Virus record (IMG/VR): IMGVR_UViG_3300042868_010462
Location: 64,001 to 128,000 of that record
Strand: one strand, 5' to 3'
Source: a virus
Length of the DNA stretch: 64,000 bases
Position numbers and translations under genes: made by a program. The notes below the pieces were generated by a model, which saw only the letters and a list, made by a program, of their open reading frames with translations, had not been told where the DNA came from and searched no databases. The stretch's first letter is position 1, and each line of letters begins with the position of its first letter. This document shows positions 2,689-29,913 of the stretch, in pieces.

Positions 2689-3450
2689 TTACTCAATAGA
2701 AAGTTTATTATCTATAAGTTTTAAAGGTGTTTTATATAATTTGTCAATATACCCGTTTCTTCGTAATACTTTAAAAACCAAATTTTCCAAGCTCATTTCA
2801 CCACCCCCTTTTAAACCACTTAATCTAAACTTTTTAAGTTTATTTTTAAATTGATTTAGTGTTTTTTCGATTGTGTCAATATCTAGGTCTTCCATATTTT
2901 TTATCGAAGAATCAATAGTTCTCATCCATTGTTTAGATTTATTTTTTACATCTTTCAAATCCACTTTAAAATCAAACCTTTTGGGTGTTTTTAACCATTC
3001 ATCATTCAGTAACGAATAAACACCTCCACTGATACCTTGCATATCAGTATCCTCAATGAAAAACTCAACATCAAAACCAAACATTTTTACATCTCTTTTT
3101 TGATTGAAAATTACTTTTTTCAAATCAAAATATTCAACGTACATATCTTTAAGTTCATTGGAAAATTGTTTGTAATCAACTAATATGTGCACGTCAATGT
3201 CTGAGAACTTAGACCAATTATAGTTAGCTATTGAACCAACTACAATAATGTCATCAATAACAACGTCAATGTCCAAACTTTCAATAAATTGGTAAGTTAT
3301 CTCAAGTAAATTTTTTCTAACCTTTGGGTTTATTTTATATTTCTGACCTTCAGGGTCACCCATATGTTTTTCATTTGGTAGATACCATATTTTTGGATAC
3401 AACTGGTCTTGTATCTCGAAACTACTTAAAATATTTTCAATATTATCCAT
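2689..3450 (-). CDS. Nucleotidyltransferase, Pol-beta superfamily
   Basis: GS-x10-DxD motif (GSIANYNWSKFSDIDVH) plus a later acidic residue (DVEFF); likely start MDNIE at 3450. Confidence 0.75.
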   Translation of the reverse strand: MDNIENILSSFEIQDQLYPKIWYLPNEKHMGDPEGQKYKINPKVRKNLLEITYQFIESLDIDVVIDDIIVVGSIANYNWSKFSDIDVHILVDYKQFSNELKDMYVEYFDLKKVIFNQKRDVKMFGFDVEFFIEDTDMQGISGGVYSLLNDEWLKTPKRFDFKVDLKDVKNKSKQWMRTIDSSIKNMEDLDIDTIEKTLNQFKNKLKKFRLSGLKGGGEMSLENLVFKVLRRNGYIDKLYKTPLKLIDNKLSIE

Positions 3451-3485
3451 GTCTGATAAATATTCACATACATTGTAAATATACA

Positions 3486-3728
3486 TCAAACCTTTTTGTA
3501 CTTGTAATTTTTAGCGATGGTGGAACTAAAAAACTTACCTTGGGATTCCGATAACCTGAATCTAGTGTAAATTGTGTGCGGTACTTCATCATATTCATAT
3601 TTAGTTCCATTTTTGAATTCAACAATCATTTTTTTAGTTGCTGTATCATACTCACTTCTTACTAAATTACTTGATTGTACTTCATTTATAATTTTTGTAC
3701 CTACTATTTCTTCTTTTAATATTGCCAT
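3486..3728 (-). CDS. KTSC domain protein
   Basis: VQSSNL..EYD....MIVEFKNGTKYEYDEVP...Y..F..SESQGKFF matches the KTSC pattern. Confidence 0.85.
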   Translation of the reverse strand: MAILKEEIVGTKIINEVQSSNLVRSEYDTATKKMIVEFKNGTKYEYDEVPHTIYTRFRLSESQGKFFSSTIAKNYKYKKV

Positions 3729-9405: not shown

Positions 9406-9784
9406 GGGGGTAATCTGGAATCGACTGACGTTGTTAGTTATTCGGGGCATGCCGGACCTGAACTAAGTCCGTTAAACTGGTTTGAAACGATACACGGCAA
9501 CGTTATCAACAAACTTTCTGCAGTAGGTTTAATCCGTGCTGAAGAAGCAGTAGTAGCCTAGTCAATAGGTTATCACTTTCGAGTCGGGGTGCATTAACTC
9601 AGGAACAGGAGCACTATAGGGTTGTCTAACTAATTCTCATCCCTAAAAATGAATTGGCTGATTTTTTTGGTTTTGGTAGTAATTAAAATCAAATAGCTCG
9701 GAACACTGCGAATAATGTTGTCCTAAGCATGTAGTCCTTAATAGTTAAGATGGACAGGAAGGAGTTCGAATCTCCGTGCCTCCA
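9406..9784 (+). ncRNA. ssrA: tmRNA; tag peptide (A)GNVINKLSAVGLIRAEEAVVA at 9496-9561
   Basis: 5' GGGGGTA...ATCGAC, 3' GGAGTTCGAATCTCC T-arm, TGCCTCC-A acceptor with G3:U70 pair, internal tag ORF ending VVA-TAG, followed by a terminator. Confidence 0.93.
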
Positions 9785-9792
9785 CCGTAGAC

Positions 9793-17904: not shown

Positions 17905-17998
17905 TATAATAAATATCCTACAAATCAGTATCTAAAAATCCAAACAAATAAAAAATTAACAGAACTAATAACATTATGTATAACATATAAATTTTTTG

Positions 17999-18075
17999 TA
18001 CCCCCTGAGAGAATCGAACTCTCAATCAAAACATCATCCTAAATGATGCGCGTCTACCTATTCCGCCAAGGGGGT
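17999..18075 (-). tRNA. tRNA-Leu(TAG), short variable region
   Basis: ACCCCCT/AGGGGGT acceptor; CATCA-TTTAGGA-TGATG anticodon arm; TTCGATT T-loop. Confidence 0.85.
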
Positions 18076-18082
18076 ATTTTTG

Positions 18083-18167
18083 TAGTCGGAGCGGGACTCG
18101 AACCCGCACGAACCTTTCGATTCAAAGGATTTTAAGTCCTTCGTGTCTGCCATTTCACCACCCAACC
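18083..18167 (-). tRNA. tRNA-Leu(TAA)
   Basis: AAGGA-CTTAAAA-TCCTT anticodon arm; long variable arm; GGTTCGAGTCC. Confidence 0.92.
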
Positions 18168-18171
18168 AACA

Positions 18172-18300
18172 TTACAATCCAAATCCCACCTTAATGAGAT
18201 AAACCAAACCTAGTACAATTATAGCCAACATCGTACCCGCAAACATCTGTGAAGAAAATTTAATTTGTTCTTCAGTTTTTCCTTGATTTTTGTTTTCCAT
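18172..18300 (-). CDS. Small membrane protein (42 aa)
   Basis: Manually translated MENKNQGK...GTMLAIIVLGLVYLIKVGFGL. Confidence 0.5.
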   Translation of the reverse strand: MENKNQGKTEEQIKFSSQMFAGTMLAIIVLGLVYLIKVGFGL

Positions 18301-18542
18301 CATAAAAATTTTTGAAAGTCCATAAAATGTTTATCAACCCACATTTTTCCTGTTACTTGTGTTGGATGTTCCGTTTTACTTTTATCGAATAATTCAGCCA
18401 TCGTTTTTCTTTCATTATCTAACTCATCCCAAAGATAAGATATCGCCAAGTTTAATTTCCGTTTTTCCTCAGTACCAACCTCGGACTCTCTGACAAGTTT
18501 TTCTAACTTTGCTATAACATTTTGAATGGGGGTGTTTTTCAT
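18300..18542 (-). CDS. Hypothetical protein (likely start MKNTP at 18542)
   Basis: ORF-track frame; its upstream extension overlaps another gene. Confidence 0.6.
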   Translation of the reverse strand: MKNTPIQNVIAKLEKLVRESEVGTEEKRKLNLAISYLWDELDNERKTMAELFDKSKTEHPTQVTGKMWVDKHFMDFQKFL

Positions 18543-18558
18543 CACAACTTTAATTTTT

Positions 18559-18735
18559 TTAATTGTTAATGTCAAGTTCCAACTGACTCTCACTAAATAT
18601 GTGCAACATTCCATTGTCGATTAATTCAGCAACAATTCTTGTGTCACCTGATGTTGTTTGAAATACCGCTACTACGATACCAGGGAACTTATACCCTTTT
18701 GGTTTGTAAACCTTGTCTCCTACTTTGAACTTCAT
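18559..18735 (-). CDS. Small SH3-like protein resembling DfrB/R67 dihydrofolate reductase
   Basis: Manually translated MKFKVGDKVYKPKGYKFPGIVVAVFQTTSGDTRIVAELIDNGMLHIFSESQLELDINN. Confidence 0.5.
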   Translation of the reverse strand: MKFKVGDKVYKPKGYKFPGIVVAVFQTTSGDTRIVAELIDNGMLHIFSESQLELDINN

Positions 18736-18741
18736 TTTTTT

Positions 18742-19146
18742 CTATTTTAAATAATTAACATGTATTGAATGAAAACCCTCACTCCTATTTATTTTCAATT
18801 CCATCCTTGAACCAGTAACATAATCAACCCAAACATTTTCACCAACTTTCACATATGGCTCCAAATCTTTATAAGATTTGTTTAACATCTTGATTGGTCT
18901 GTAAACACTCCAATTTGCACAATATTCTACCCCATTACTTTCAACAAAAATGAACCCATAACTTTCCAATTGTTTCTCGTCCATATACACAATATCATAA
19001 TAATAAGTAAAAATCTTTAACCCATCAATGAATTCTGTTTTGTGATTTGTACCTAGATTTTTTTCAATTTGTTGGGAAGATAAACCCAGTTGTGCAAATG
19101 TTAAAAATGGTAAAAATAATAATAGAAATAAAATCGTTTTTTTCAT
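18742..19146 (-). CDS. Exported hypothetical protein
   Basis: Signal peptide MKKTILFLLLFLPFLTFAQ. Confidence 0.65.
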   Translation of the reverse strand: MKKTILFLLLFLPFLTFAQLGLSSQQIEKNLGTNHKTEFIDGLKIFTYYYDIVYMDEKQLESYGFIFVESNGVEYCANWSVYRPIKMLNKSYKDLEPYVKVGENVWVDYVTGSRMELKINRSEGFHSIHVNYLK

Positions 19147-19160
19147 AATTTTTGTTTTAG

Positions 19161-19247
19161 TACACCCAGTAGGACTCGAACCTACAACGACCTTTCGGTA
19201 CCACTCCGCTTAGAAGGCGGGCATTCTTCCAATTGAATTATGGGTGC
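19161..19247 (-). tRNA. tRNA-Arg(TCT) with unusually long variable arm
   Basis: GCACCCA/TGGGTGT acceptor; CCGC-CTTCTAA-GCGG arm; extra GTGGTACCGAAAGGTC segment. Confidence 0.8.
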
Positions 19248-19350
19248 TAATCGATTGTCTTTCCAATCTGTCAGGTACTTCTATACCAATGAGACGAATT
19301 GTTTTTTTTTCAGTCGCATTACTTTCTGGAACTTCGTCAAAACCAAGTTG

Positions 19351-19431
19351 TAGTCAGTATAGGAATCGAACCCATATAATTTCATCTCAAGTCTAAGACT
19401 CGGAATTACTGTAACCACCCAGTGACTGACT
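19351..19431 (-). ncRNA. tRNA-like element 1 (AGTCAG acceptor family)
   Basis: AGTCAGT/ACTGACT-A acceptor and GGTTCGATTCC T-arm; no canonical D or anticodon arm. Confidence 0.6.
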
Positions 19432-19647
19432 TTCCCCCACCTTGAGATTACTGGTGAGTAGTTATTTCGGTTTTTATGCTATTCAAAAAACCTGTTGGGC
19501 ATCCCCACTGAAAAAAGTCACACATACGAAGGAGGGGGTGTGCTGCCGCCTTTAACCCTAAGAATCGGCATTCCGTTGTCCGATTTGAACGAGTTCATTG
19601 TTAAATGAGTCTTGAACCAAAGACTGCTGAGTATCTCTTACTCATTG
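19432..19647 (-). ncRNA. Candidate structured ncRNA (~215 nt)
   Basis: GC-enriched and non-coding, with several hairpins (GAGTA/TACTC, GTCTT/AAGAC, AATCGG/CCGATT, CACAC/GTGTG, GGTTTTT/AAAAACC, CACC/GGTG). Confidence 0.55.
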
Positions 19648-19754
19648 TAGTCAGGACAGGATTCGAACCTGTAAAATCTTTTATCTGGTTTAGGGTAGGT
19701 TCTATTCCTATCTCCTTCCAAAACATATAGCGTCTACCATTCCGCCACCTGACT
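19648..19754 (-). ncRNA. tRNA-like element 2 (AGTCAG acceptor family)
   Basis: AGTCAGG/CCTGACT-A acceptor, Leu-type D arm GCGGAATGGTAGACGC, ACAGGTTCGAATCCTGT T-arm, ~55-nt non-canonical insert. Confidence 0.7.
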
Positions 19755-19759
19755 AAATT

Positions 19760-20020
19760 TTAATTCAGTGCATCTATTTCCATACAATACAAACCGAACT
19801 CTTGTATTTCATCACCATATCTATACTTGTAAGTTCCCTCATAAATGTCGGGATAACTACTATCATAAGGAAAATAACCCAAGTATTCAACATCCTTATC
19901 TTCAAAGTAGGGTGGTAATCCCATATACTCATCCAAGAGTTGTTTGACCTTTTCAACTGTCGTTGCAGTTAGTACTGGGATTTTATCTTCCCTATCTACT
20001 ATAAGATATATTAGTGCCAT
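19760..20020 (-). CDS. Hypothetical protein
   Basis: 86-aa ORF between tRNA-like elements. Confidence 0.6.
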   Translation of the reverse strand: MALIYLIVDREDKIPVLTATTVEKVKQLLDEYMGLPPYFEDKDVEYLGYFPYDSSYPDIYEGTYKYRYGDEIQEFGLYCMEIDALN

Positions 20021-20391
20021 TGTTGTAAACTTTTATTTATATTAATTTTTGTCAATTTTTTTTTTCTTTTTTTTTTATTTTTTTCTTTTCCTTTTTTTTC
20101 TTTTATTTTTTTTTCTTTTGTTTTTACGACTTCCACCAAATCCATTTCTGGGTCAGATAATTCTTGATAACCAAACATTGAAAAGTCAGAAATATAAGAC
20201 CACCACTTTCCATCAAAAACATATCTTTCATGGTCTATTTTTGGTTTTTTATTGTCAATGCTTTTACCAAAATAAATTCCATCCCATCCATCTCTTTTCC
20301 CTTCTATTGGTGGATTACCCTTGATAATTTTTACTAATCTACCATCTCTACTCTTGTAAGTTTTACCTACTTCTAAAATTATATTTTCCAT
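20011..20391 (-). CDS. Hypothetical protein with Lys-rich tail (likely start MENIIL)
   Basis: LEVGKTYKSRDG N-terminus; the ORF-track extension runs through a tRNA-like element. Confidence 0.6.
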   Translation of the reverse strand: MENIILEVGKTYKSRDGRLVKIIKGNPPIEGKRDGWDGIYFGKSIDNKKPKIDHERYVFDGKWWSYISDFSMFGYQELSDPEMDLVEVVKTKEKKIKEKKGKEKNKKKRKKKLTKININKSLQQWH

Positions 20392-20423
20392 ATTTATAAT
20401 TTTTATTTTTTTAAATAAGTTAG

Positions 20424-20504
20424 TAGTCAGGACAGGATTCGAACTTGTGACGATAAACGCAGATGTGTACCTCATCTTGGCAGCTCCAATTCTGCCACCT
20501 GACT
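20424..20504 (-). ncRNA. tRNA-like element 3 (AGTCAG acceptor family)
   Basis: AGTCAGG/CCTGACT-A acceptor; GTTCGAAT T-loop; AGATG-AGGTACA-CATCT arm lacking U33. Confidence 0.7.
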
Positions 20505-20604
20505 TTGTTTGTTTAAACTTTTCGGTTTTCCTATTCAAAACCTTAACGTCAGGCAACAATCTAAGTGTCAGCCACTACTTGTGAATTATTAGGTGTCACA
20601 ACCA

Positions 20605-20835
20605 TTAGAAATATTTTCTTGTAAGATATTCATCAGTTCCTAAACTTGGTGCGTTGTTATTTTCATCTAAATGAAGAAACATAAATCCTTTGTAAGCGTT
20701 GGCTTCTAATAGAATCTTTTCAATCATTGTGATGATTCCAAGTTTTTCTTCCATCATAATGTTTGGATGGGCTAATTGTTCGTTAGCGAAGTTTTTAATC
20801 ATCTCAACTTGGATTGTTTTTTTCTCTTTAGCCAT
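20605..20835 (-). CDS. Hypothetical protein
   Basis: ORF with TAnnTTTG at 20858-20865. Confidence 0.65.
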   Translation of the reverse strand: MAKEKKTIQVEMIKNFANEQLAHPNIMMEEKLGIITMIEKILLEANAYKGFMFLHLDENNNAPSLGTDEYLTRKYF

Positions 20836-20920
20836 TGTGTTATTGTTTAAGTGTTCACAAATATAGAAATAGATTTTTAATTACACAACCTTTGATGAAT
20901 AATTTTGAGAAAAATATTTG

Positions 20921-20991
20921 AGCGGATAGTTGGTACTGCCCCAACTTATCTAGTTTGGAAGACTAGAACATTACTTTTATGCTATGCCCGC
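20921..20991 (-). tRNA. tRNA-Gly(TCC), non-canonical D and T loops
   Basis: GCGGGCA/TATCCGC-T acceptor; CTAGT-CTTCCAA-ACTAG; T-loop GGCAGTA. Confidence 0.8.
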
Positions 20992-20995
20992 TAAT

Positions 20996-21226
20996 TTACC
21001 TGAGATTCCAAATACCACCAGCAAAACACTTGAAGTCATTGTAACTTGTAACTCTTATAGGATTTTCTTCATATTTCCACCTATTACAAGTTATATAGAT
21101 TTCTCCTGTCCATTTATCCTTCTTGAGAAAGGTATAAATACCATTACGAGATTTGATATGGATTTTATCCCCATTTTTGAGGTTCTTAAACTGAGACAAT
21201 CTTATTTGTTCCATAAGTGATTCCAT
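20996..21226 (-). CDS. Hypothetical protein
   Basis: ORF between tRNAs. Confidence 0.6.
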   Translation of the reverse strand: MESLMEQIRLSQFKNLKNGDKIHIKSRNGIYTFLKKDKWTGEIYITCNRWKYEENPIRVTSYNDFKCFAGGIWNLR

Positions 21227-21243
21227 AGTATTTGAATAAAAAG

Positions 21244-21318
21244 TGGAGCCGGTATGAGGAATCGAACCCCATTATCTTGATTACAAGTCAAGCACATCAC
21301 CACTTATGCTTTACCGGC
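21244..21318 (-). tRNA. tRNA-Thr(TGT)
   Basis: GCCGGTA/TACCGGC-T-CCA; CTTGA-CTTGTAA-TCAAG. Confidence 0.92.
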
Positions 21319-21325
21319 ATTTATA

Positions 21326-21598
21326 TTATCTTCTTTTATAAACATAAGTTATTGTATCACCAATCTTATAAACATCATTTCTCTTGGTTATAACAAACTC
21401 GTCACAATCAGTTGAATAATGATATCTTTTCCCATATTCAATGGTGGATGGTGATTCTGTAACATAAAATGTATCTATTACACATCTTTTAACAATATCC
21501 CCATCTTCAATTTCATTATAGTTTGTTCTATTTAGAATTGAAGCTAATAAAACAAATGAAACAAAAAATAAAAACAAACAAGGAATTAAATATTTCAT
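21326..21598 (-). CDS. Hypothetical membrane-anchored protein
   Basis: N-terminal hydrophobic helix. Confidence 0.55.
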   Translation of the reverse strand: MKYLIPCLFLFFVSFVLLASILNRTNYNEIEDGDIVKRCVIDTFYVTESPSTIEYGKRYHYSTDCDEFVITKRNDVYKIGDTITYVYKRR

Positions 21599-21600
21599 CT

Positions 21601-21849
21601 TTAAACTTTTAACAAATAAATTAATAATGAACCCAAAGTATAACCAATACTGGAAGCCAAGGCCATCTTGATTCTTTCATTCCAATTCTTTGATTCAACC
21701 ATATAACCAACAAATGGTAATCCCAAAAATGGCCCGATACAAGCCCAAAAAATCATCATAAAATCTCTATCAGCAACCGTTGCAATATACATAGTTGCGG
21801 CCAACTCAATAACAAATGATGCGATACCAATTATAATATATTTTTTCAT
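21601..21849 (-). CDS. Small three-TM membrane protein
   Basis: Hydrophobic segments. Confidence 0.6.
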   Translation of the reverse strand: MKKYIIIGIASFVIELAATMYIATVADRDFMMIFWACIGPFLGLPFVGYMVESKNWNERIKMALASSIGYTLGSLLIYLLKV

Positions 21850-22442
21850 AAATGTTTAATTACCCAATCCGCAAACTTCTTTTGTCCTGATAAACTTACA
21901 TGAACCCCATCACCAGCATCTTTGAATGTTACAGATGTATCCTTTGGAATTATAAGACAATTTTTCAAACCTGTCTTTGGGTCAACCATCAATTTTTGAA
22001 ATTCAACATACCTTGCTCTACATCTATCAGTGGTCTCAGTACCATATACAGTTCTAACCATAACTTTGATGGGGTCATATCCAACAATAACAATCGGTTT
22101 AATCCCCCTCCTATTACAAGAATCAACCATCATCTGTATATTATTAACGGCACCCTGTAAGTTCACATAAGAAAAAGCATCATTACAACCCCCATAAATA
22201 AACACACTGGTAAACATTGAATCTCTCTTCAAATGGTCGTTAAGTGTTAATCTCATCCAATCCGTTCTCTTTCCACCACTTGATTTATTTAAACTCTGAT
22301 AACCGAATTCCTTGGCTACCATATCTTGCCAACCACCAGTATAACAAGTCAAACTATCACCGATGAATAATACCCTCAAAGGTGGGGTTGAAAAGGAAGT
22401 TAATAAAATAACACATAACAATAATAAACTAATTTTCTTCAT
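21846..22442 (-). CDS. Exported SGNH/GDSL hydrolase
   Basis: FIGDSLT, GGCND and DGVH motifs; signal peptide. Confidence 0.85.
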   Translation of the reverse strand: MKKISLLLLCVILLTSFSTPPLRVLFIGDSLTCYTGGWQDMVAKEFGYQSLNKSSGGKRTDWMRLTLNDHLKRDSMFTSVFIYGGCNDAFSYVNLQGAVNNIQMMVDSCNRRGIKPIVIVGYDPIKVMVRTVYGTETTDRCRARYVEFQKLMVDPKTGLKNCLIIPKDTSVTFKDAGDGVHVSLSGQKKFADWVIKHL

Positions 22443-22455
22443 AAAACAATTTTTT

Positions 22456-22533
22456 TGGTGGAGACAGTGAGAATCAAACTCACCTCACAGATATTGCAAA
22501 TATCCATCGCCAAGTCTTGGTACATGTGCCCCC
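22456..22533 (-). tRNA. tRNA-Ala(TGC), atypical D arm
   Basis: GGGGGCA/TGTCTCC-A-CCA with G3:U70; GGATA-TTTGCAA-TATCT. Confidence 0.82.
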
Positions 22534-22541
22534 ATTTTTAT

Positions 22542-23063
22542 TTATAACCCAATTTCCTCCAAAGGTAAAACCTCAAAGAAATATTTACAACCAACATCTG
22601 TTATATATTCAAAAACATCCTTATAACAATCTTTATTGAAAAAATTACTTAAGACATAATAGTACTCAACTTGGATACCGATTGGACTAAACAATTTTTT
22701 ATATTGTCTTTTTTTGAAATTACAAGTTTGTAATTTCTCATCAACAGAACCGGCACCATTTTGGTATTTCTTTTCAATTATGTAGATGGTATTCCCCACT
22801 AATATTGCAGCATCAGGTAAAAGTTTTTTACTGATAATCGTATTGTGGTCAATATTATATCTACTTAACAATTTTTTGTACAGACCATATTTCTCAAAAT
22901 ATTCACCGACAATTATACCATTTTTTACAATTTGGTCTTGATTATCCATCACATAATCACTTTGTTCCACTAACAATTTTTTTAGGTGTGTTGTAGCTTC
23001 AAAATGTAATCCGTTAACATTTGTGTTTGCACCCCCACCACTTTTGTTTGGCGTTCTATTCAT
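22542..23063 (-). CDS. PD-(D/E)XK nuclease-like protein
   Basis: LLPD...IIEKKYQ...GSVDEKLQT. Confidence 0.7.
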   Translation of the reverse strand: MNRTPNKSGGGANTNVNGLHFEATTHLKKLLVEQSDYVMDNQDQIVKNGIIVGEYFEKYGLYKKLLSRYNIDHNTIISKKLLPDAAILVGNTIYIIEKKYQNGAGSVDEKLQTCNFKKRQYKKLFSPIGIQVEYYYVLSNFFNKDCYKDVFEYITDVGCKYFFEVLPLEEIGL

Positions 23064-23079
23064 AGTTTTTCTTTTTTTG

Positions 23080-23164
23080 TGGTGGGAATGGAGGGATTCG
23101 AACCCCCTCAGCTAATACAAATGATTTACAGTCATCCCCGACTCTCCAGCTTCGGCGCACTCCC
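23080..23164 (-). tRNA. tRNA-Tyr(GTA)
   Basis: GATGA-CTGTAAA-TCATT; GGTTCGAATCC; encoded CCA. Confidence 0.9.
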
Positions 23165-23175
23165 ATTATAAATTG

Positions 23176-23250
23176 ATGCAGGAACGGGAGTCGAACCCGT
23201 ATGGTACGGCTTATGAGACCGAGCTGGAACCACTTCCAGTCCATCCTGCA
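23176..23250 (-). tRNA. tRNA-Met(CAT), atypical D arm
   Basis: TGCAGGA/TCCTGCA acceptor; CGGT-CTCATAA-GCCG. Confidence 0.8.
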
Positions 23251-23259
23251 TTGTGTTTG

Positions 23260-23331
23260 ACGCAAAGAAAGGAATCGAACCTTTTACCTTTGGGTTATGA
23301 GCCCAATGTGCAACCACTACACTTCTTTGCA
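23260..23331 (-). tRNA. tRNA-fMet(CAT)
   Basis: Three G:C pairs in the anticodon stem (TTGGG-CTCATAA-CCCAA); weak 1:72 pair. Confidence 0.85.
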
Positions 23332-23339
23332 TATATTTG

Positions 23340-23411
23340 TAGCCCGTAGGGGAGTCGAACCCCTCTTGCAAGAATGAAAATCTTGAGTCCTAGCCGATAG
23401 ACGAACGGGCC
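23340..23411 (-). tRNA. tRNA-Glu(TTC)
   Basis: GGCCCGT/ACGGGCT; CAAGA-TTTTCAT-TCTTG. Confidence 0.92.
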
Positions 23412-23422
23412 ATATTTGTTTG

Positions 23423-23496
23423 CGAGCTATAGGGGATTCGAACCCCTGGTCTTCAGCGTGACAAGCTGAAATGTTAAACCCCTACACCAATAGCTC
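23423..23496 (-). tRNA. tRNA-Asp(GTC)
   Basis: GAGCTAT/ATAGCTC-G; TCAGC-TTGTCAC-GCTGA. Confidence 0.92.
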
Positions 23497-23518
23497 TTTT
23501 GTATTAATTCTTCCCTCT

Positions 23519-23542
23519 ATGTCAATGAACTTTACAAAGTTA
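23519..23542 (-). promoter_or_regulatory. TAnnTTTG promoter plus boxA-like GTTCATTGACAT ahead of tRNA-Asp
   Basis: TAACTTTG at 23535-23542; GTTCATTGACAT at 23519-23530, identical to 29354-29365. Confidence 0.65.
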
Positions 23543-23549
23543 AACAATC

Positions 23550-24029
23550 TTATCCAATTTTCCAAGCACCATAGATAACTTTTTTTCTCTGTAGTGCATC
23601 TTCTGTGTTTCCAATTACAACTCCATCTTTGATTGTGAAAGCATGACCCTTGATTGTAACAATGTAAGTTCCTTTTGAATACTTTTCCAAGAACTTAGCT
23701 GTTGTCATATTTCTCAAAACATTTCTTCCTTTCACCTCAACCCAATATGCCATTTGAATATCTTCTCTAATTGGTGTAACACCTTTACGATTGAACTTTA
23801 TCTGTTTTGACGCAAGTGTATTCATAGTTAAACCAAAGAGTGCAGTCCCTTGTCTATTTTTTCTACCAAAAACCTCTGCCACTTTTTTGTGAGCATAGTC
23901 GTAAGTAACTCCAAACGCTGAAGCAAAGGCTCTGACGACACAATCGTCTTTCTCACTTTGAGCTAACTTCGATTCTGCAATCCCTTTGATGGCGACTGAT
24001 GATGATATGTATGGTGTTTTCGTTTTCAT
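23550..24029 (-). CDS. Hypothetical phage protein (DCVVRA...H motif)
   Basis: 159-aa ORF; TAnnTTTG at 24034-24041. Confidence 0.7.
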   Translation of the reverse strand: MKTKTPYISSSVAIKGIAESKLAQSEKDDCVVRAFASAFGVTYDYAHKKVAEVFGRKNRQGTALFGLTMNTLASKQIKFNRKGVTPIREDIQMAYWVEVKGRNVLRNMTTAKFLEKYSKGTYIVTIKGHAFTIKDGVVIGNTEDALQRKKVIYGAWKIG

Positions 24030-24073
24030 ATTACAAAGTTACAAAACCATTTTTAATTTCCAAACTTTGTGAT

Positions 24074-24109
24074 AAAAAAAAATCCATCTTTTTTTACGAA
24101 GATGGATTT
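24074..24109 (-). terminator. Attenuator-type intrinsic terminator after leader A
   Basis: AAATCCATCTT-loop-AAGATGGATTT-T-run; the 5' arm is complementary to GGAGATGG in the leader. Confidence 0.8.
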
Positions 24110-24136
24110 GACATTATTAACACTCAAAACTTAAGT

Positions 24137-24208
24137 TCATACCATCTCCATCCGAGGATTTCTACCCTCAGCTCCAGTCGTTAAGTCCATATAGAGATTG
24201 CGTTTCAT
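24137..24208 (-). CDS. Leader peptide A, MKRNLYMDLTTGAEGRNPRMEMV
   Basis: 23-aa ORF 27 nt upstream of the terminator; composition matches the downstream tRNA array. Confidence 0.75.
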   Translation of the reverse strand: MKRNLYMDLTTGAEGRNPRMEMV

Positions 24209-24267
24209 TGAATTTCTTACTATTTTTTTATTAAATATAATGATATAACGGAAAAGTGTCAAGTATG

Positions 24268-24579
24268 TTACAAAAAAGATGAAATAATTTGTGCTACTTT
24301 ATATCCTGTGAAGGCTCCCAATGCCGCAGAACCTGGTAAAACAAAGAACTTACCGAATAAACTTTCATATTTTGACCTATTAACGATGTATGAAATTAGG
24401 ATATAATAAAGAAAGAAGTTAATCAGTACAGCAATATCGATTTCCTTGGCCATAAAGACAACAATCGAGTTTCCAAAGAACCCCCAACTGAAGTTTATTA
24501 ATGTCTCCCTGATTAATTCCCAAACTGATGTATTGGCATCAGCAACCTTAATTTCCCTTGTAAATAAATTATTTTTCAT
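24268..24579 (-). CDS. Membrane protein
   Basis: Three hydrophobic segments. Confidence 0.65.
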   Translation of the reverse strand: MKNNLFTREIKVADANTSVWELIRETLINFSWGFFGNSIVVFMAKEIDIAVLINFFLYYILISYIVNRSKYESLFGKFFVLPGSAALGAFTGYKVAQIISSFL

Positions 24580-25085
24580 CCTATAAAATCGTCAAATCCG
24601 TTGTTACTTAAAAAATCGTTATCTTCATCTATTTCTCTTATCTCGAACTCAAAACTTGATACATTACAAACTACATCTTTAGTGAATGTTTCGTGTATAT
24701 AATCAAAGTCATCTGGAGATATTTGAACTTGTTCATCTTTAAATAATTTGAAAAGTTCCTTTGTATTTCTGTAAAGATTTGGGTATTGATAAGTTTTCAA
24801 AATACCATCCATTTCGAATACTTCAAATCTTTTGTAAAAATTATCGTTGTACATTAGAATATGTTCCTGAGCCCACTCATTAACAACTTGAAGAATGAAT
24901 GTCTTTAAACCCTGCATACAAGCTACCCTATAGTCCTCATATTGTTGTTCAACAGTTAAACTACCAATCTCAACATCATCAACCTCTTCTTCATATTTGG
25001 CAATTGTATCCAAGGCCAACATCTGTAATTCATCCCAATTTGTTTGATGTATTTTATAAAAGTTTACAACTACCATTTCTTTCAT
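24576..25085 (-). CDS. Hypothetical protein
   Basis: 169-aa ORF. Confidence 0.65.
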   Translation of the reverse strand: MKEMVVVNFYKIHQTNWDELQMLALDTIAKYEEEVDDVEIGSLTVEQQYEDYRVACMQGLKTFILQVVNEWAQEHILMYNDNFYKRFEVFEMDGILKTYQYPNLYRNTKELFKLFKDEQVQISPDDFDYIHETFTKDVVCNVSSFEFEIREIDEDNDFLSNNGFDDFIG

Positions 25086-25105
25086 TATTAAAGTGTTATT
25101 TAATT

Positions 25106-25747
25106 TTATTCCTTCGAATCTGTATCGTAAAACATTAAGTCAGAGTCTTCGGTTGCCCATTTATTATGTCCTTCACAATTATAATAATCTAAATTAACTA
25201 GATAATCAGGTTTCTCAGGAAAATCTTTTGTGACAAAAGAAGGTTCATTCCATCTTATTCTATTGTTGGGTTGTAAGGCAATTTGTCCATTATCTAATAA
25301 GATGATGTGATGACACTTGTGTTCCATAGGGTCTTCTGACAATGTTAAATCAGTATTCATATCACTTGAACCCCAGTTAATTGTGCCAAAATAATTTCCA
25401 TCATACCATTTCTTATCTTTCATAAAAACTGAAACCCGCATCCCATATACAAAACTAAGTTGAATGAGGGAAAAGTTATATGAAAAACAATTCCATAATT
25501 GCAGAAAATGAAAAGACAAATCAGGATTTGGTGTCTCAGGTTTTGTCAATAGTGCATGAGATGGTAATTTGTCTCTCATTACACCATTGTTCAATAAAAC
25601 CTGAAACAAAACCGCCTGGTTTGGCATACACCGAATCGAAGTAACAATTCCTTCTGTAAACTCACCAAATCCTTTTTGGTGCTGATACATATATTCATTT
25701 CGAACATAAACTTTAAGTGGGAAAAAATTACTTTCGATATAAGCCAT
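25106..25747 (-). CDS. Hypothetical phage protein
   Basis: 213-aa ORF (VYVRNEY, LQLWNCFS, HKCHH, QPNNRIRW). Confidence 0.7.
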   Translation of the reverse strand: MAYIESNFFPLKVYVRNEYMYQHQKGFGEFTEGIVTSIRCMPNQAVLFQVLLNNGVMRDKLPSHALLTKPETPNPDLSFHFLQLWNCFSYNFSLIQLSFVYGMRVSVFMKDKKWYDGNYFGTINWGSSDMNTDLTLSEDPMEHKCHHIILLDNGQIALQPNNRIRWNEPSFVTKDFPEKPDYLVNLDYYNCEGHNKWATEDSDLMFYDTDSKE

Positions 25748-25749
25748 AA

Positions 25750-26070
25750 TTAACTTGTTGGTATGTCATTTGAGCCATACTCTCTTATTAAATAGTCGGT
25801 AAAATCTTCTACACTTTCAACATTGAACTCAACTTCTTCGTGCCAGATTTTTTTATCAACATCATCATATAACCACCAGCCAACTAAGTCCTGAATCCAT
25901 CCGAATTGTTCGTCTTGTTTTTTTCTGAGGAGGGTCGGAATACTTTTTTCAAGTTGAGGAGTGGTGTTGTTAAGCTCAAGTAAATCAACTCCCAAACCAT
26001 AGAGCCTATGTATCTTTTCATCGTATTCTTTAATTTTTAACAAAGTTTCGATTATGTATTCTCGTACCAT
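25750..26070 (-). CDS. Hypothetical protein
   Basis: 106-aa ORF. Confidence 0.65.
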   Translation of the reverse strand: MVREYIIETLLKIKEYDEKIHRLYGLGVDLLELNNTTPQLEKSIPTLLRKKQDEQFGWIQDLVGWWLYDDVDKKIWHEEVEFNVESVEDFTDYLIREYGSNDIPTS

Positions 26071-26078
26071 TATAAGTA

Positions 26079-26267
26079 TTATTTAAGTTGTTTGAAATAT
26101 TTTGGAATTATTATCATACTACTGATGTAAAATGCAATAAACATTACACCATAAACTAATCCCTCGTTGAAATAGATACCCAAAACATATTTACTAATCA
26201 ATAGCTGGGGTATCATAATCAAAAAGAAAACTAAAAAAGAAAAGAACACAGTTACAAATGTTTTCAT
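26079..26267 (-). CDS. Small two-TM protein
   Basis: Hydrophobic 62-aa ORF. Confidence 0.55.
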   Translation of the reverse strand: MKTFVTVFFSFLVFFLIMIPQLLISKYVLGIYFNEGLVYGVMFIAFYISSMIIIPKYFKQLK

Positions 26268-26296
26268 CTCATTTTATTTTGTGGTTAAATAATTTG

Positions 26297-26369
26297 CAGG
26301 TCCCCAAGGATTCGAACCCTGACCGGATAGGTTGGAGCTATCAATGCTAAGCCATTACACTAGAGACCC
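26297..26369 (-). tRNA. tRNA-Trp(CCA)
   Basis: GATAG-CTCCAAC-CTATC; GGTTCGAATCC. Confidence 0.9.
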
Positions 26370-26404
26370 ATATATTTGCTTACTATTACAAAGATAAGAA
26401 AAAA

Positions 26405-27139
26405 TTAAAACTTTTTATATTTTTTATCCCAATTTTCAATCCTTTTTAAAAGTTCTTCCATTGTTATTGACGAATTATCCTTTTTTATTGAATTATCTGA
26501 GAATAATAATAGATTACAATTCGCAGGATGGGATATAATCTTTGGGTTAATCTTATTTCGAAAACCATCCATCACAGAATACATATGGTCTTTACTTACC
26601 CCTTTCAAATTATTCCGTTTGTTTGTTGGTGAATACCATCCATATTGTTCAACTAAAGATAAATCAAATTCATCTTTAAAATCTTGGATGTCAAACTTAA
26701 AAAAACAAGATGGTCTATAATACTCGTAATATGTTAATTTACAATCATTACATATTATTTTCAACTTTTCAGTTACCTCATTAATTGAACAAATCTTACA
26801 AATCTTTTTAGTTTTAATCTTTTCCTTTCTGGGCTTGTTTTTTAAGGTCTCTGAAATCTTTTTTTTAGTTTCTTCAGTCAGTTTTCTATTTCTATTATTA
26901 TACTGTATAGCACAAGAAGATGAACAAAAGGTATTAGGTTTACTAAAATATTTTTCAAATTCCTTTTTACAATTTTTACAAACTTGATTTTCCTTGTATA
27001 TAACTTTTAAATTCAATCTACCCATTTTACAATTGATAGATTTGTAAGTCGTTCCCATAATTTCAGCAATATCACCAGGTCTATAACCCTTCTCGACAAG
27101 TGAAACTAATTGTTTTATATTTTCATCATTCCATTTCAT
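26405..27139 (-). CDS. Putative HNH-type homing endonuclease
   Basis: HTH-like N-terminus, CxxC..FCSSSC, LTEETKKKISE (NUMOD3-like), SKDH...HPANC...N..K. Confidence 0.7.
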   Translation of the reverse strand: MKWNDENIKQLVSLVEKGYRPGDIAEIMGTTYKSINCKMGRLNLKVIYKENQVCKNCKKEFEKYFSKPNTFCSSSCAIQYNNRNRKLTEETKKKISETLKNKPRKEKIKTKKICKICSINEVTEKLKIICNDCKLTYYEYYRPSCFFKFDIQDFKDEFDLSLVEQYGWYSPTNKRNNLKGVSKDHMYSVMDGFRNKINPKIISHPANCNLLLFSDNSIKKDNSSITMEELLKRIENWDKKYKKF

Positions 27140-27191
27140 ATATATAAATATCTAAGAAATGAGGAAAAGTAAAGAATCGAACTTTTTTTTG

Positions 27192-27265
27192 AGGTCGGGG
27201 AGGGAATCGAACCCCCCTAAAAATGATTTTGCAGGTCATTGCCTAAACCACTCGGCCACCCGACC
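27192..27265 (-). tRNA. tRNA-Cys(GCA)
   Basis: GGTCGGG/CCCGACC-T; CTGCAAA loop. Confidence 0.88.
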
Positions 27266-27283
27266 TTAATATTTCTTTTTTAT

Positions 27284-27410
27284 CCCCCAACTTCACCCCA
27301 CTCGTCAGTGGGGGAGTGGTTAGGTTGAGTCCGAACTTATACCTTGGGCTATTCGTTGGACAAAAAGACCACAGCAAGTGAGCAGTTCTAATGGGATGCT
27401 TCGTGGTACA
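27284..27410 (-). ncRNA. Candidate structured ncRNA between tRNA-Lys and tRNA-Cys
   Basis: GC-enriched and non-coding; ACCAC/GTGGT, AGCA/TGCT and CCCCACT-GACG-AGTGGGG stems. Confidence 0.45.
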
Positions 27411-27417
27411 TTGAATG

Positions 27418-27492
27418 TGACCCTGGTGAGACTCGAACTCACGCTCCCTAAATTAAAAGTTTAGTGCTTTAAACCAACTAAGCCACAGGGTC
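27418..27492 (-). tRNA. tRNA-Lys(TTT)
   Basis: GACCCTG/CAGGGTC-A; CTAAA-CTTTTAA-TTTAG. Confidence 0.9.
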
Positions 27493-27493
27493 A

Positions 27494-27799
27494 TTAATCA
27501 AATTTTCTATTAGGATTCATTCCTCTCTTATAGTTCACACACAATCTATCTTTATCATCAAAGAAAGTATTGACCATTGGTGTGCCCAATTTTATACCAC
27601 AACCATCAGGTGCGAAACTACATAAACTTCTTGCACGACCATCCAAGTTTACATCTTCCAATAATCTCCACTCAATTCCTGTCTCCACATCATAAACATA
27701 ATCACCATCTCTCAATACATAAAGTTGGTTGTATCTGTTTCTCATTGATTCATAAAACTTCGCTGACATAGTGTTCATTAAAATTAAAACTTTCAACAT
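27494..27799 (-). CDS. Hypothetical protein
   Basis: ORF between tRNAs; start uncertain. Confidence 0.55.
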   Translation of the reverse strand: MLKVLILMNTMSAKFYESMRNRYNQLYVLRDGDYVYDVETGIEWRLLEDVNLDGRARSLCSFAPDGCGIKLGTPMVNTFFDDKDRLCVNYKRGMNPNRKFD

Positions 27800-27822
27800 A
27801 ATTCGGTTGATTGAATGGTTAA

Positions 27823-28035
27823 CTAATCCTGTCTAATTACATTCCCAAATCTACACAAAAGATTCATATATTTTACTGTTTCCATCAAATAATTTTGATT
27901 TTTATCCATTAAAATAACAACCTCCATATCAATAATTGCTCTTACCTGAACCTCCTTGTTGTTGGGATTGTCATCACCAAAATCAATAATTAAGTTGTCA
28001 CCAACTTTAAACTCACCAATTTTTACCTTTTCCAT
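27823..28035 (-). CDS. Hypothetical protein
   Basis: 70-aa ORF. Confidence 0.55.
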   Translation of the reverse strand: MEKVKIGEFKVGDNLIIDFGDDNPNNKEVQVRAIIDMEVVILMDKNQNYLMETVKYMNLLCRFGNVIRQD

Positions 28036-28050
28036 AATAAATATTTTTTG

Positions 28051-28125
28051 TTGTTCCGGTGAGGCTCGAACTCACGACTTCTACGGTATCAGCATAGTAC
28101 TCTAAACCAACTGAGTTACGGAACA
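28051..28125 (-). tRNA. tRNA-Ile(GAT)
   Basis: TGTTCCG/CGGAACA; CTATG-CTGATAC-CGTAG. Confidence 0.9.
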
Positions 28126-28132
28126 ATGTTTG

Positions 28133-28206
28133 TGGTTCCATCAGGATTTGAACCTGAAACCCCTCCGTTATGAGCGGAAAGCTCTAACCACTTGAGCTAT
28201 AGAACC
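28133..28206 (-). tRNA. tRNA with CAT anticodon, probably Ile2 (lysidine, reads ATA)
   Basis: GGTTCTA/TGGAACC-A; TCCG-CTCATAA-CGGA; Ile2-like body (TAGCTCAAGTGGTTAGAGC), adjacent to tRNA-Ile; identity inferred. Confidence 0.75.
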
Positions 28207-28220
28207 TTAAAAAAAATTTG

Positions 28221-28292
28221 TATGGGTGACCGGATTTGAACCGATGACCACTAATTCCCAAAATTAGCATTCTACCTCTGAACTACACCCAT
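28221..28292 (-). tRNA. tRNA-Pro(TGG)
   Basis: CTAAT-TTTGGGA-ATTAG; GGTTCAAATCC. Confidence 0.88.
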
Positions 28293-28295
28293 ATA

Positions 28296-28445
28296 TTAAA
28301 CAATTAAACCATATATAATTCCACATAGAAGAACAATTAGAAAAATAAGTCCTACTAAGAATAGGTCTGAGTTTCGTTTGAAGTGAGACAAAACTAAGAA
28401 TAATATTCCAATTATCAAAAACAAAAGACCAATTAATAATAACAT
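28296..28445 (-). CDS. Small two-TM protein (49 aa)
   Basis: Manually translated MLLLIGLLFLIIGILFLVLSHFKRNSDLFLVGLIFLIVLLCGIIYGLIV; fits between two tRNAs. Confidence 0.5.
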   Translation of the reverse strand: MLLLIGLLFLIIGILFLVLSHFKRNSDLFLVGLIFLIVLLCGIIYGLIV

Positions 28446-28462
28446 AATTTAATTTTTTTTTG

Positions 28463-28556
28463 CGGAGAACAGAGGTCTCGAACCCACACACCAGCTCATC
28501 ACCGATGACATCTGATTTTCAAGACCAGGCCGATACCAATTTCGGTTGACTTTTCC
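28463..28556 (-). tRNA. tRNA-Ser(TGA), imperfect acceptor and T stems
   Basis: CTGGT-CTTGAAA-ATCAG; long variable arm; G73. Confidence 0.7.
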
Positions 28557-28564
28557 GTATTGTT

Positions 28565-28641
28565 TGGTGGTATGATGGGACTCGAACCCACACATACATC
28601 ATCCACAATGATGTCCCTCTACCAATTGGGGTACATACCAC
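28565..28641 (-). tRNA. tRNA-His(GTG)
   Basis: G-1:C73 pair; CATCA-TTGTGGA-TGATG. Confidence 0.92.
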
Positions 28642-28649
28642 ATATAGTT

Positions 28650-28725
28650 TGGTGGTGATGATTGGAATCGAACCAATATTAAACGATTTTCAGTCGTTCG
28701 CCTTGACCAACTTGGCAACATCACC
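28650..28725 (-). tRNA. tRNA-Phe(GAA)
   Basis: GGTGATG/CATCACC-A-CCA; AACGA-CTGAAAA-TCGTT. Confidence 0.92.
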
Positions 28726-28735
28726 ATAAAGTTTT

Positions 28736-28799
28736 GAGTAAGTATCCACCACGTTTAAGGCTGGCTGTGGACAGTGCTACCTACGACCTTTCCTTACTC
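28736..28799 (-). ncRNA. Candidate 64-nt structured RNA at the start of a tRNA transcript
   Basis: GAGTAAG/CTTACTC closing stem; inner TCCAC/GTGGA; begins just after TAACTTTG (28805-28812). Confidence 0.45.
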
Positions 28800-29034
28800 T
28801 TCTACAAAGTTACCATTTTTTTTTAATTTCCAAATATCTTTGTAAGTTTTTTTTAAAGTGGTCAAAATCCACCACTTTAAGTTATTACTACACAATCCAT
28901 AAAATGGTAAAAACCAATTAATGTAAAACTTGAACAATAAATTATTTTAAAAAAAATTTTGAATTTTACTTGGATGTATGGTATTTGTTTTGTTTCTTTG
29001 TTAAACATTATTTCACTACTAAAAATTTAAAATT

Positions 29035-29157
29035 ATGAACACACAATTGAGCACAACTTCAAAAATTATTGTTGGAATTATTTCTGTTGTATTATTATAC
29101 AACGCTACTTACCTACTAGGAATTGTTGTAGGTTTTTTACAAGGTATTTTGGGTTAA
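29035..29157 (+). CDS. Small hydrophobic protein (40 aa), opposite strand to the tRNA array
   Basis: MNTQLSTTSKIIVGIISVVLLYNATYLLGIVVGFLQGILG, followed by a long hairpin. Confidence 0.45.
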   Translation: MNTQLSTTSKIIVGIISVVLLYNATYLLGIVVGFLQGILG

Positions 29158-29264
29158 AATTATTCTTTTAAAAGTAGAATTCGGATTTTATTTAAAAGTT
29201 CGAATTCTACTTTTATTATCTCTATTTCATTATACCAGGTAATAAAATCCCTCACTTTAGAATG

Positions 29265-29337
29265 TTCCCCCTGATGGAATCGAACCACCATCCTCAGAAT
29301 CAAAATCTGATGTAATCAACCATTATACCAAGAGGGA
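29265..29337 (-). tRNA. tRNA-Gln(TTG)
   Basis: TCCCTCT/AGGGGGA; TCAGA-TTTTGAT-TCTGA. Confidence 0.9.
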
Positions 29338-29353
29338 GTATTATTTTACCACG

Positions 29354-29365
29354 ATGTCAATGAAC
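29354..29365 (-). promoter_or_regulatory. boxA-like element GTTCATTGACAT
   Basis: Directly after the attenuator T-run and before tRNA-Gln; exact copy at 23519-23530. Confidence 0.6.
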
Positions 29366-29397
29366 AAAAAAAACCCTGAACTTTATGGTTCAGGGTT
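29366..29397 (-). terminator. Attenuator-type intrinsic terminator after leader B
   Basis: AACCCTGAAC-loop-GTTCAGGGTT-T-run; the 5' arm is complementary to ATGGTTGGGG...TTCTA in the leader. Confidence 0.82.
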
Positions 29398-29421
29398 CTA
29401 CTATCAAAAAATTATTAACAA

Positions 29422-29529
29422 TTATAATTCTATAGAATTTCCCCAACCATTACAAACACTCGGCTTTGACCAACAATTGCTAAATTGTGGCTGAACCGAT
29501 ATGTTAATATGTTTGAAGAAATTTTTCAT
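29422..29529 (-). CDS. Leader peptide B, MKNFFKHINISVQPQFSNCWSKPSVCNGWGNSIEL
   Basis: 35-aa ORF 24 nt upstream of the terminator; composition matches the downstream tRNA array. Confidence 0.78.
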   Translation of the reverse strand: MKNFFKHINISVQPQFSNCWSKPSVCNGWGNSIEL

Positions 29530-29576
29530 TTTTTTAGTTTGTTTATAAGTATTGCGAAATTAATAAAAAGTTTGGC

Positions 29577-29890
29577 TCAGAATGATTTTTTTCCAAAGTT
29601 GCAATTTTGTTTAGTTTGCTGAACTCATTCTTTATAACCTAAATTGACAGGATAGTGTTTGGTCAAATTTACAAGTTTTGATGTTTAAAGATTGCTGAAT
29701 CTATCCCTCGTTCTATATAACGTAAATATAATTAAAAAGTTTCAAAAAGAAAAGAAAATTGGAAAAATTGGTTTCAGTATGGGTTTTTTGTTGAAGTTTA
29801 TTTCCGTGCGATTGGAAAAATGAGTCAACAACTCAGCCTTGTGTTCGAATGATTCAATATTTGTATCTTAGTTTGCTGGAATCATACTTT
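29577..29890 (-). ncRNA. Three related stem-closed RNA-like elements with a CAGCAA motif (29577-29633, 29648-29708, 29774-29890)
   Basis: AGAATGA/TCATTCT, GGATAG/CTATCC and AGTATG/CATACT closing stems, each followed by TT(C)CAGCAA and ending in CTG. Confidence 0.6.
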
Positions 29891-29913
29891 ATAAACCAAT
29901 TTTTCCTTTTCTC

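Follow-up and report, generated by a model that had tools for sequence, protein, structure and literature searches.

Leader-peptide attenuation has so far been described for amino-acid operons and for one synthetase operon. Leaders reading a single amino acid are represented by trpL, hisL, leuL and pheL, multivalent ones by the ilvGMEDA leader, with its Leu, Val and Ile codons, and by the thr leader, with Thr and Ile codons, and the synthetase case is the pheM leader, which attenuates the phenylalanyl-tRNA synthetase operon pheST of E. coli. The enterobacterial amino-acid-operon leaders have in common with the phage locus described here a short ORF, apparently translated in the phage, with codons cognate to what the operon supplies, alternative pairings that form a protector, an antiterminator or a terminator, and a stop codon so placed that a ribosome finishing the ORF would block the antiterminator. 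With pheM the locus shares leader-peptide attenuation of the translation apparatus rather than of biosynthesis, and with the T-box riboswitch a competing antiterminator through which tRNA status acts on terminator read-through.

Full-text searches of the literature returned recent work on tRNA-cleaving defences and on phage tRNAs as counter-measures, but no account of tRNA genes or phage tRNA arrays controlled by leader-peptide or ribosome-mediated attenuation. A trp-operon-style switch on tRNA genes is apparently undescribed, and would be a known mechanism in a new use. The original prediction placed such a switch, with a 35-residue leader peptide (leader B), ahead of a phage tRNA array (array B). 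This reading is supported by the coding constraint on the leader, the RNA switch, the class of the adjacent boxA and the existence of unrelated leader families. We consider it probable that the element is a ribosome-mediated (leader-peptide) transcription attenuator which reports the decoding of the codons served by its own tRNA array.

The locus and the coding constraint on leader ORF B

The stretch of DNA analysed (64 kb, hereafter the window) belongs to an IMG/VR phage contig of 147.9 kb, of which it covers bases 64001-128000. The contig has a G+C content of ~30% and an estimated completeness of ~50%. The 19-21 tRNA genes of the contig are all located on the minus strand and all within 17998-29337 of the window. 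Two tRNAs on this strand were detected with Rfam only, one at 19648-19754 with an apparent insertion or intron of ~29 nt, and one at 20921-20991 with the anticodon TCC (Gly), as read by eye, and an odd T-arm. The phage also has a tmRNA gene (9406-9787; Rfam, 90 bits), which is encoded on the plus strand and thus opposite to the tRNA arrays. Promoters of the form TTTG, 18-20 nt, TAnnTTTG, together with translation starts devoid of a Shine-Dalgarno sequence, indicate a host from the Bacteroidota. The coordinates of the features of the locus are collected in Table 1.

Table 1. Features of the leader B locus, array B and the companion leader A module in the window.
Feature	Position	Strand	Remarks
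Promoter-like element, Bacteroidota type	29566..29597	minus	Read from the sequence; putative function
Leader ORF B	29422..29529	minus	35 codons and stop; no Shine-Dalgarno; 5' leader A-rich
Sensor codons 2-23	29461..29526	minus	A stall here would leave segment 2 free
Protector (1:2) hairpin	29436..29523	minus	Minimum free energy (MFE) folds; same topology in six close variants
Segment 2, antiterminator 5' arm	29433..29451	minus	Core ATGGTTGGGG at 29441-29450
Intrinsic terminator (predicted)	29366..29399	minus	12-bp stem, 6-nt loop, T8 run
boxA-like element (GTTCATTGACAT and conserved ..TGGTA)	29338..29365	minus	Fills the gap from the T-run to tRNA-Gln
tRNA-Gln(ttg)	29264..29337	minus	First array gene after the putative attenuator
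Internal consensus promoter (TTTG, N18, TAACTTTG)	28805..28834	minus	Between tRNA-Gln and tRNA-Phe
Rest of array B	26296..28725	minus	Phe, His, sub-threshold Ser(tga), Pro, CAT, Ile, Lys, Cys, Trp
Leader A module	24080..24208	minus	Leader of 23 codons 24137-24208, terminator 24080-24109; ahead of array A

The amino acids assigned to array B were Gln, Phe, His, Ser, Pro, Ile, Lys, Cys and Trp. The tRNA genes behind this list were recovered, except that tRNA-Ser(tga) (~28462-28555, minus strand) is a weak call, obtained with ARAGORN at a lowered threshold only and with 22 bits in Rfam. The tRNA with a CAT anticodon is probably tRNA-Ile2, and small ORFs are interspersed among the tRNA genes of the array.

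Homologous modules were retrieved from IMG/VR by means of the neighbouring gene and degenerate DNA patterns. Nine distinct variants of the unit ORF, terminator, boxA and tRNA-Gln were found among related phages; beyond the known relatives, a 14-base core pattern gave chance matches only, and a three-block pattern returned five contigs already known plus noise and nothing further. In the closest relative, L003, the array additionally contains tRNA-Asn(gtt), tRNA-Val(tac), tRNA-Arg(acg) and tRNA-Ser(gct), and compared with it the window phage has lost these Asn, Val, Arg and Ser(gct) tRNAs. Upstream of leader B lies a DUF2828/DUF7788 gene. Between this DUF2828 (Ro60/TROVE-like) gene and the leader, at 29574-29906 (minus strand), two to three copies of a related motif were observed, two of which are 76% identical over 59 nt.

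The putative promoter of the leader consists of TTTG (29594-29597), a 20-nt spacer and AAACTTTT (29566-29573), and lies ~37 nt upstream of the ATG; the region 5' of the ORF is conserved in the relatives, and further consensus promoters of this type are present in the array. Translation of the ORF gave the peptide of the original prediction, and a recount of codons 2-26 (25 residues) confirmed that 20 belong to the array B set, that the remaining five are Asn or Val and that none belongs to the array A set. The reported use of both ATT and ATA for Ile and of the synonymous pairs AAA/AAG, TTC/TTT, CAG/CAA and CCA/CCG was likewise found. When leaders B and A were compared by their residues in the array B versus the array A set, the counts were 20/0 and 2/16, respectively (Fisher, p = 6.9e-9).

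Since the array of the relatives holds tRNA-Asn and tRNA-Val, which the window phage has lost, the five Asn and Val residues cease to be foreign to the set. All 22 residues of sensor codons 2-23 are served by array B tRNAs of either the window phage or its closest relative. In L003 itself the array set covers every one of the 22 sensor residues, and the leader contains 11 of the 12 array amino acids. Five to nine sensor codons are affected by the absence of Asn and Val tRNAs from the window contig and by the sub-threshold status of its Ser tRNA. A comparable state was seen in an L176-type relative, the array of which has lost the Phe, His, Asn and Lys tRNAs and the leader of which retains the corresponding codons. 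Most amino acids occur one to three times in leader B, which is devoid of codon runs such as those of hisL or pheL, and its sensitivity to any single tRNA would rely on ribosomes stalling at single codons.

Over the nine variants, pN/pS of leader ORF B was 0.42 in frame versus 1.25 and 1.22 in the other two frames, and synonymous changes ran across an invariant peptide core of eight residues. This coding-type conservation indicates that leader ORF B is translated, as far as can be judged in silico. A noncoding sRNA was considered as an alternative and rejected, conservation and roster match both being specific to the frame of the ORF.

The predicted RNA switch and the boxA-like element

A predicted intrinsic terminator with a hairpin of -16.9 kcal/mol separates the leader ORF from the tRNA genes; it is kept in all relatives, with changes compensated. 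Its 5' arm (29385-29399) is common to the antiterminator. The original prediction had paired the 3' segment of the leader with this arm, and the duplex, which extends to the start of the loop, was obtained with -14.0 kcal/mol. Segment 2 comprises nucleotides 79-97 of the ORF and ends 9-16 nt upstream of the stop codon. Segment 2 and the two terminator arms, 5' and 3', change together in L202, L242 and L275. Co-variation was read from a duplex analysis of each sequence, the MAFFT alignment A2 having misaligned segment 2 in L005 and L275. The ATGGTT motif close to the end of the ORF is invariant even in L005, where it stands in another reading frame and is followed directly by the stop; the motif is therefore constrained as RNA, in line with the original prediction for this segment.

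In the untranslated RNA the 5' half of the ORF is predicted to pair with the 3' half, segment 2 included, and the fold of the untranslated leader, consisting of this ORF hairpin and the terminator, had z = -5.9 versus shuffled sequence. A stalled ribosome was mimicked by masking the RNA to 13 nt past codon 8, 14 or 20 and withholding the 3' arm of the terminator. Under this constraint, pairing of segment 2 with the terminator 5' arm was the MFE structure in 6/6 close variants, as the attenuator reading anticipates; without the mask, the same six B-family variants gave the ORF hairpin and the terminator instead. Folding therefore predicts a protector pairing in the six B-family variants, which comprise the window and five relatives, and a mutually exclusive antiterminator in the window and its relatives. 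At equilibrium the terminator outcompetes the antiterminator, ribosome mask included, and control must therefore be kinetic. The terminator likewise wins at equilibrium in the trp attenuator.

Searches against Rfam gave no T-box match in the whole window, nor in 28250-29560 at E up to 1, and no match to the leader families over 29338-29560, whether the gathering threshold or an E limit of 1 was applied. Over the terminator only weak, chance-level sRNA matches were obtained.

As originally noted, a boxA-like site (12-mer, 29354-29365) abuts the T-run, and the same motif class was found at the rRNA genes of Bacteroidota genomes. The exact 12-mer occurs twice in the 64-kb window, at 29354-29365 and at 23519-23530 (minus strand), the latter before tRNA-Asp, and both copies lie just upstream of the first tRNA of an array. 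The tRNA-Gln gene starts 17 nt after the 12-mer, and in every B-family variant tRNA-Gln is the first tRNA, 17-21 nt past the boxA motif. By its length the interval between the T-run and tRNA-Gln has no room for a promoter. A sigma-70 promoter in the boxA region was considered and rejected, TTGACA being present without a -10 hexamer at workable spacing and the rrn data explaining the motif.

An extended motif, GTTCTTTGACRTNNTGGTA, was scanned in GTDB with one genome per species; the window copy departs from it by a single substitution within the 12-mer (A for T). The matches listed were overwhelmingly from Bacteroidota. Among them, 22 lay 34-174 nt upstream of the 23S 5' motif, often after a spacer tRNA, four lay 128-235 nt upstream of the 16S 5' end, and 14 were at the ends of contigs, where matches would be expected if rRNA operons had collapsed in the assembly. 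Leader and spacer positions before 16S and 23S are the classical boxA positions, and the location of the GTDB matches at them therefore supports assignment of the motif behind the T-run to the Bacteroidota rrn boxA class. Its role behind the attenuator, including the loading of Nus factors, would be that of an rrn boxA. Further boxA-class copies in Bacteroidota (L308-L427, GTDB genomes) share an upstream block starting with TAGTGTCC; no 16S or 23S neighbour of these copies was found using simple motifs, and they possibly represent another rRNA-operon position.

Leader families ahead of other phage tRNA arrays

IMG/VR was scanned with the terminator sequence alone and, separately, with a pattern combining the G-rich stem end, the T-run and boxA. 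The former scan brought up two unrelated leader families. In L183, a leader ORF of 32 codons contains 13/13 amino acids of its 14-tRNA array. In L185 and L194, an ORF of 36 codons (1600-1710 in L185) precedes an array of ten tRNAs; 22 of the 23 residues before the antiterminator arm are drawn from the eight amino acids of the array, and the AGA codons of the leader match tRNA-Arg(tct). The latter scan gave 136 matches, 100 of which have a tRNA on the same strand within 80 nt. From these IMG/VR scans, 75 non-identical leader modules ahead of tRNA arrays were collected, falling into 35 peptide clusters. Nearly all modules have an ORF of 20-45 codons, usually with a Met-Lys start, and their geometry is constant, with the stop 25-44 nt upstream of the terminator and the end of the antiterminator arm 0-21 nt upstream of the stop.

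The match between leader roster and array was evaluated on the 19 clusters having at least six tRNAs in a compact array. Against their own arrays the leaders reached a precision of 0.70, a recall of 0.96 and F of 0.80, versus 0.51, 0.77 and 0.59, respectively, against the arrays of other clusters, and none of 100,000 permuted pairings of leaders and arrays attained the observed match. Single families compared with random peptides of phage composition gave p values down to 5e-6. The match was specific to the frame of the ORF (F 0.80; 0.54-0.56 when the other frames or the reverse complement were read, p ~4e-6 to 1e-5). It extended to codon boxes: where the array tRNAs serve a single one of the two boxes of Arg, Leu or Ser, the box so served accounted for 39 of the 56 leader codons for these amino acids, versus 27.5 expected from local codon usage in a hand calculation. 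Putative regulatory codons cognate to the products of the downstream tRNA genes are present both in the window and in these families.

The pairing potential was retained as well. Many different terminator arm sequences occur among the 33 clusters compared, and each ORF has, in its 3' part, a complement of 8-10 nt to its own arm. The mean own-arm duplex was -11.9 kcal/mol, versus -7.1 for shuffled sequence (p = 6e-9) and -5.0 for the 5' part of the ORF (p = 1e-6). This comparison across unrelated leader families is the strongest evidence for an attenuator. Just upstream of a leader preceding a Pro/Lys/Cys/Trp array, a tRNA with a CTA anticodon (amber suppressor; Pyl according to ARAGORN) was observed in L193 (1640-1714) and L190 (8314-8388); it may bear on the use of stop codons in these phages.

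The companion leader A has homologues in L036, L165, L176 and L244. That of L176 is reordered in sequence and keeps the same amino-acid set, and that of L244 stands directly before boxA and a Thr/Leu/Glu/Asp/Leu/Gly/Ala array, all six amino acids of which it contains.

Among cultured phages, a blastn search with two modules and the boxA junction against 50,697 phage records returned tRNA similarity only and no leader, and there was no leader at the matched site of phage C48C1 or at the matched sites of a Lak megaphage. In Prevotella phage Lak-B1 (L307, 120253-127280), a consensus promoter at ~3440-3525 is followed ~30 nt later by a boxA-like TTGTTCTTTGAAAT with no leader ORF, which shows that the boxA module can occur by itself. 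In phiCbK, the annotation places a terminator after gp083 (45 aa), and next comes a Pro/Pro/Lys/Lys/Leu/Leu/Leu/Ser/Ser array. All 4/4 array amino acids are present in gp083, and by hand count 23/44 of its residues are in the set, which is suggestive of a similar leader.

Proposed switch, alternative readings and comparison with known systems

In the attenuator reading, transcription would start upstream of the 35-codon ORF. If the ORF were not translated, its two halves would pair with each other (1:2), the terminator (3:4) would form and transcription would end at the T-run. With smooth translation the ribosome would reach segment 2 near the stop and keep it from the terminator 5' arm, and termination would follow again. 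When a tRNA is scarce, the ribosome would stall at any of codons 2-23, covering segment 1 and leaving segment 2 free; this segment would pair with the newly made terminator 5' arm (2:3), and RNA polymerase would read through. It would then transcribe the rrn-type boxA, probably becoming termination-resistant, and continue into tRNA-Gln and the rest of the array. The new tRNAs would relieve the stall, and through this negative feedback the phage would probably express the array only while ribosomes are held up by a shortage of its tRNAs. The scheme presumes coupling of ribosome and polymerase; to our knowledge, transcription-translation coupling has not been established in Bacteroidota.

Array B has a second transcription route. 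In all close relatives, tRNA-Gln is followed by a hairpin and a consensus promoter, then by a ~70-nt element and tRNA-Phe, and the internal promoter of the window has the same place in L003, L004, L005 and L177. Since this promoter after tRNA-Gln is conserved, transcription of the array as a whole cannot be gated by the attenuator alone. Only tRNA-Gln is without a promoter of its own in sight among the array B genes, and in the window lineage strict dependence on read-through appears limited to it, the rest having the second route. For array A, one or more promoters of Bacteroidota type lie between the leader A terminator and tRNA-Asp; with promoters after tRNA-Gln and before tRNA-Asp, most of each array can therefore be transcribed without read-through.

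Several other elements were observed in these intervals. The ~70-nt element between the internal promoter and tRNA-Phe (28726-28804, minus strand) is near-invariant, with homologues at 8815-8893 in L003, 8087-8163 in L004, 9338-9416 in L005 and 10274-10352 in L177. It has a closing stem of 7-8 bp (GAGTAAG/CTTACTC) and is conserved above the level of the leader; neither a terminator nor an Rfam match was found in 28726-28804. Between tRNA-Gln and the internal promoter, the segment 29035-29215 holds a plus-strand ORF for 40 hydrophobic residues and an inverted repeat of 20 bp. The relatives have only ~130-160 nt between tRNA-Gln and this promoter, and the content of the segment looks like an insertion in the window phage. 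Between the leader A terminator and the boxA of tRNA-Asp lies an ORF of 159 aa (23550-24029, minus strand) with its own consensus promoter, which is not present at the corresponding place in L176.

The second route bears on the possibility that the element of the window phage is a relic or insulator, i.e., that an ancestral attenuator of a compact array now terminates upstream transcription, with tRNA-Gln made from leaky read-through, function having been lost after ORF and promoter insertions. The promoter internal to the array after tRNA-Gln, the plus-strand ORF and long inverted repeat inserted between them and the loss of the Asn, Arg, Ser(gct) and Val tRNAs relative to L003 would agree with such a history. 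We nevertheless regard it as unlikely, because ORF, segment 2, terminator and boxA are intact and under purifying selection across nine variants that share the internal promoter, and because tRNA-Gln stays directly behind the switch in every variant. The same layout, a strong terminator followed by further promoters, resembles a self-contained unit, and the peptide core is conserved in sequence and order, beyond composition, as would be seen if this were simply a small phage gene that has a terminator of its own, a functional 35-aa product and an incidental position before tRNA-Gln. This explanation seems very improbable, since it accounts neither for unrelated ORFs that hold the amino acids of their own arrays, nor for the complement to its own terminator arm in each ORF, nor for the out-of-frame ATGGTT of L005; Rfam, moreover, has no family match for the DNA.

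A further reading accepts a translation-dependent switch and takes it to report general translation or amino-acid status and not the supply of array tRNAs. Any stall, including one caused by amino-acid starvation, would flip the same RNA switch, and single codons per amino acid favour a broad over a specific sensor. Such a device would not need a roster fitted to its array. The permutations nevertheless show an array-specific match, which reaches down to codon boxes, and we hold this reading to be quite unlikely.

If the attenuator reading is correct, phages would gauge, codon by codon, how well the infected cell can decode and would tune their tRNA supply by feedback. This would bear on what phages gain from having tRNA genes, be it a response to codon bias, to the decay of host tRNAs or to defences that target tRNAs. 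The leader appears to list the amino acids of its array like a roster, attenuation appears to act on the tRNA genes themselves, and this architecture is common, dozens of unrelated leader families being found in IMG/VR phages. It would also provide an annotation rule for hundreds of unannotated mini-ORFs and a natural, compact multi-input translation sensor usable in synthetic biology. More tentatively, roster attenuators might serve as an inducible counter-defence, an OR gate over up to 17 tRNA species. The arrays would then be near-silent until a listed codon became slow to read, whereupon polymerase modified at boxA would turn on the whole array. The trigger could be a host anticodon nuclease or other tRNA-degrading immunity of the PrrC, PARIS or retron kind, or the infection-driven decay of host tRNAs. 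Should this conjecture hold, the leaders would be the first virus-encoded sensors of tRNA-targeting immunity.

Compared with the known systems, the phage leaders differ from the enterobacterial ones in what they regulate, namely tRNAs instead of enzymes, and in what they read, listing up to 17 amino acids mostly one to three times each, whereas the enterobacterial leaders contain runs of one to three amino acids. They are also phage-borne and of Bacteroidota type, with no Shine-Dalgarno sequence and with an rrn boxA directly after. The T-box binds uncharged tRNA and involves neither ribosome nor ORF, whereas here the sensor would be a translated ORF. With rrn antitermination the locus shares a motif of 12-19 nt behind the T-run, of the class found before Bacteroidota 16S and 23S genes. 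This Bacteroidota rrn boxA class is now defined, and phages have borrowed the motif class; the difference is that the candidate site, as judged by its sequence, here stands at the head of an array of phage tRNA genes and directly follows a terminator that would be conditional. Finally, the pheM leader senses one amino acid and controls a synthetase, whereas here the products are tRNAs and the loop would close directly on tRNA supply.
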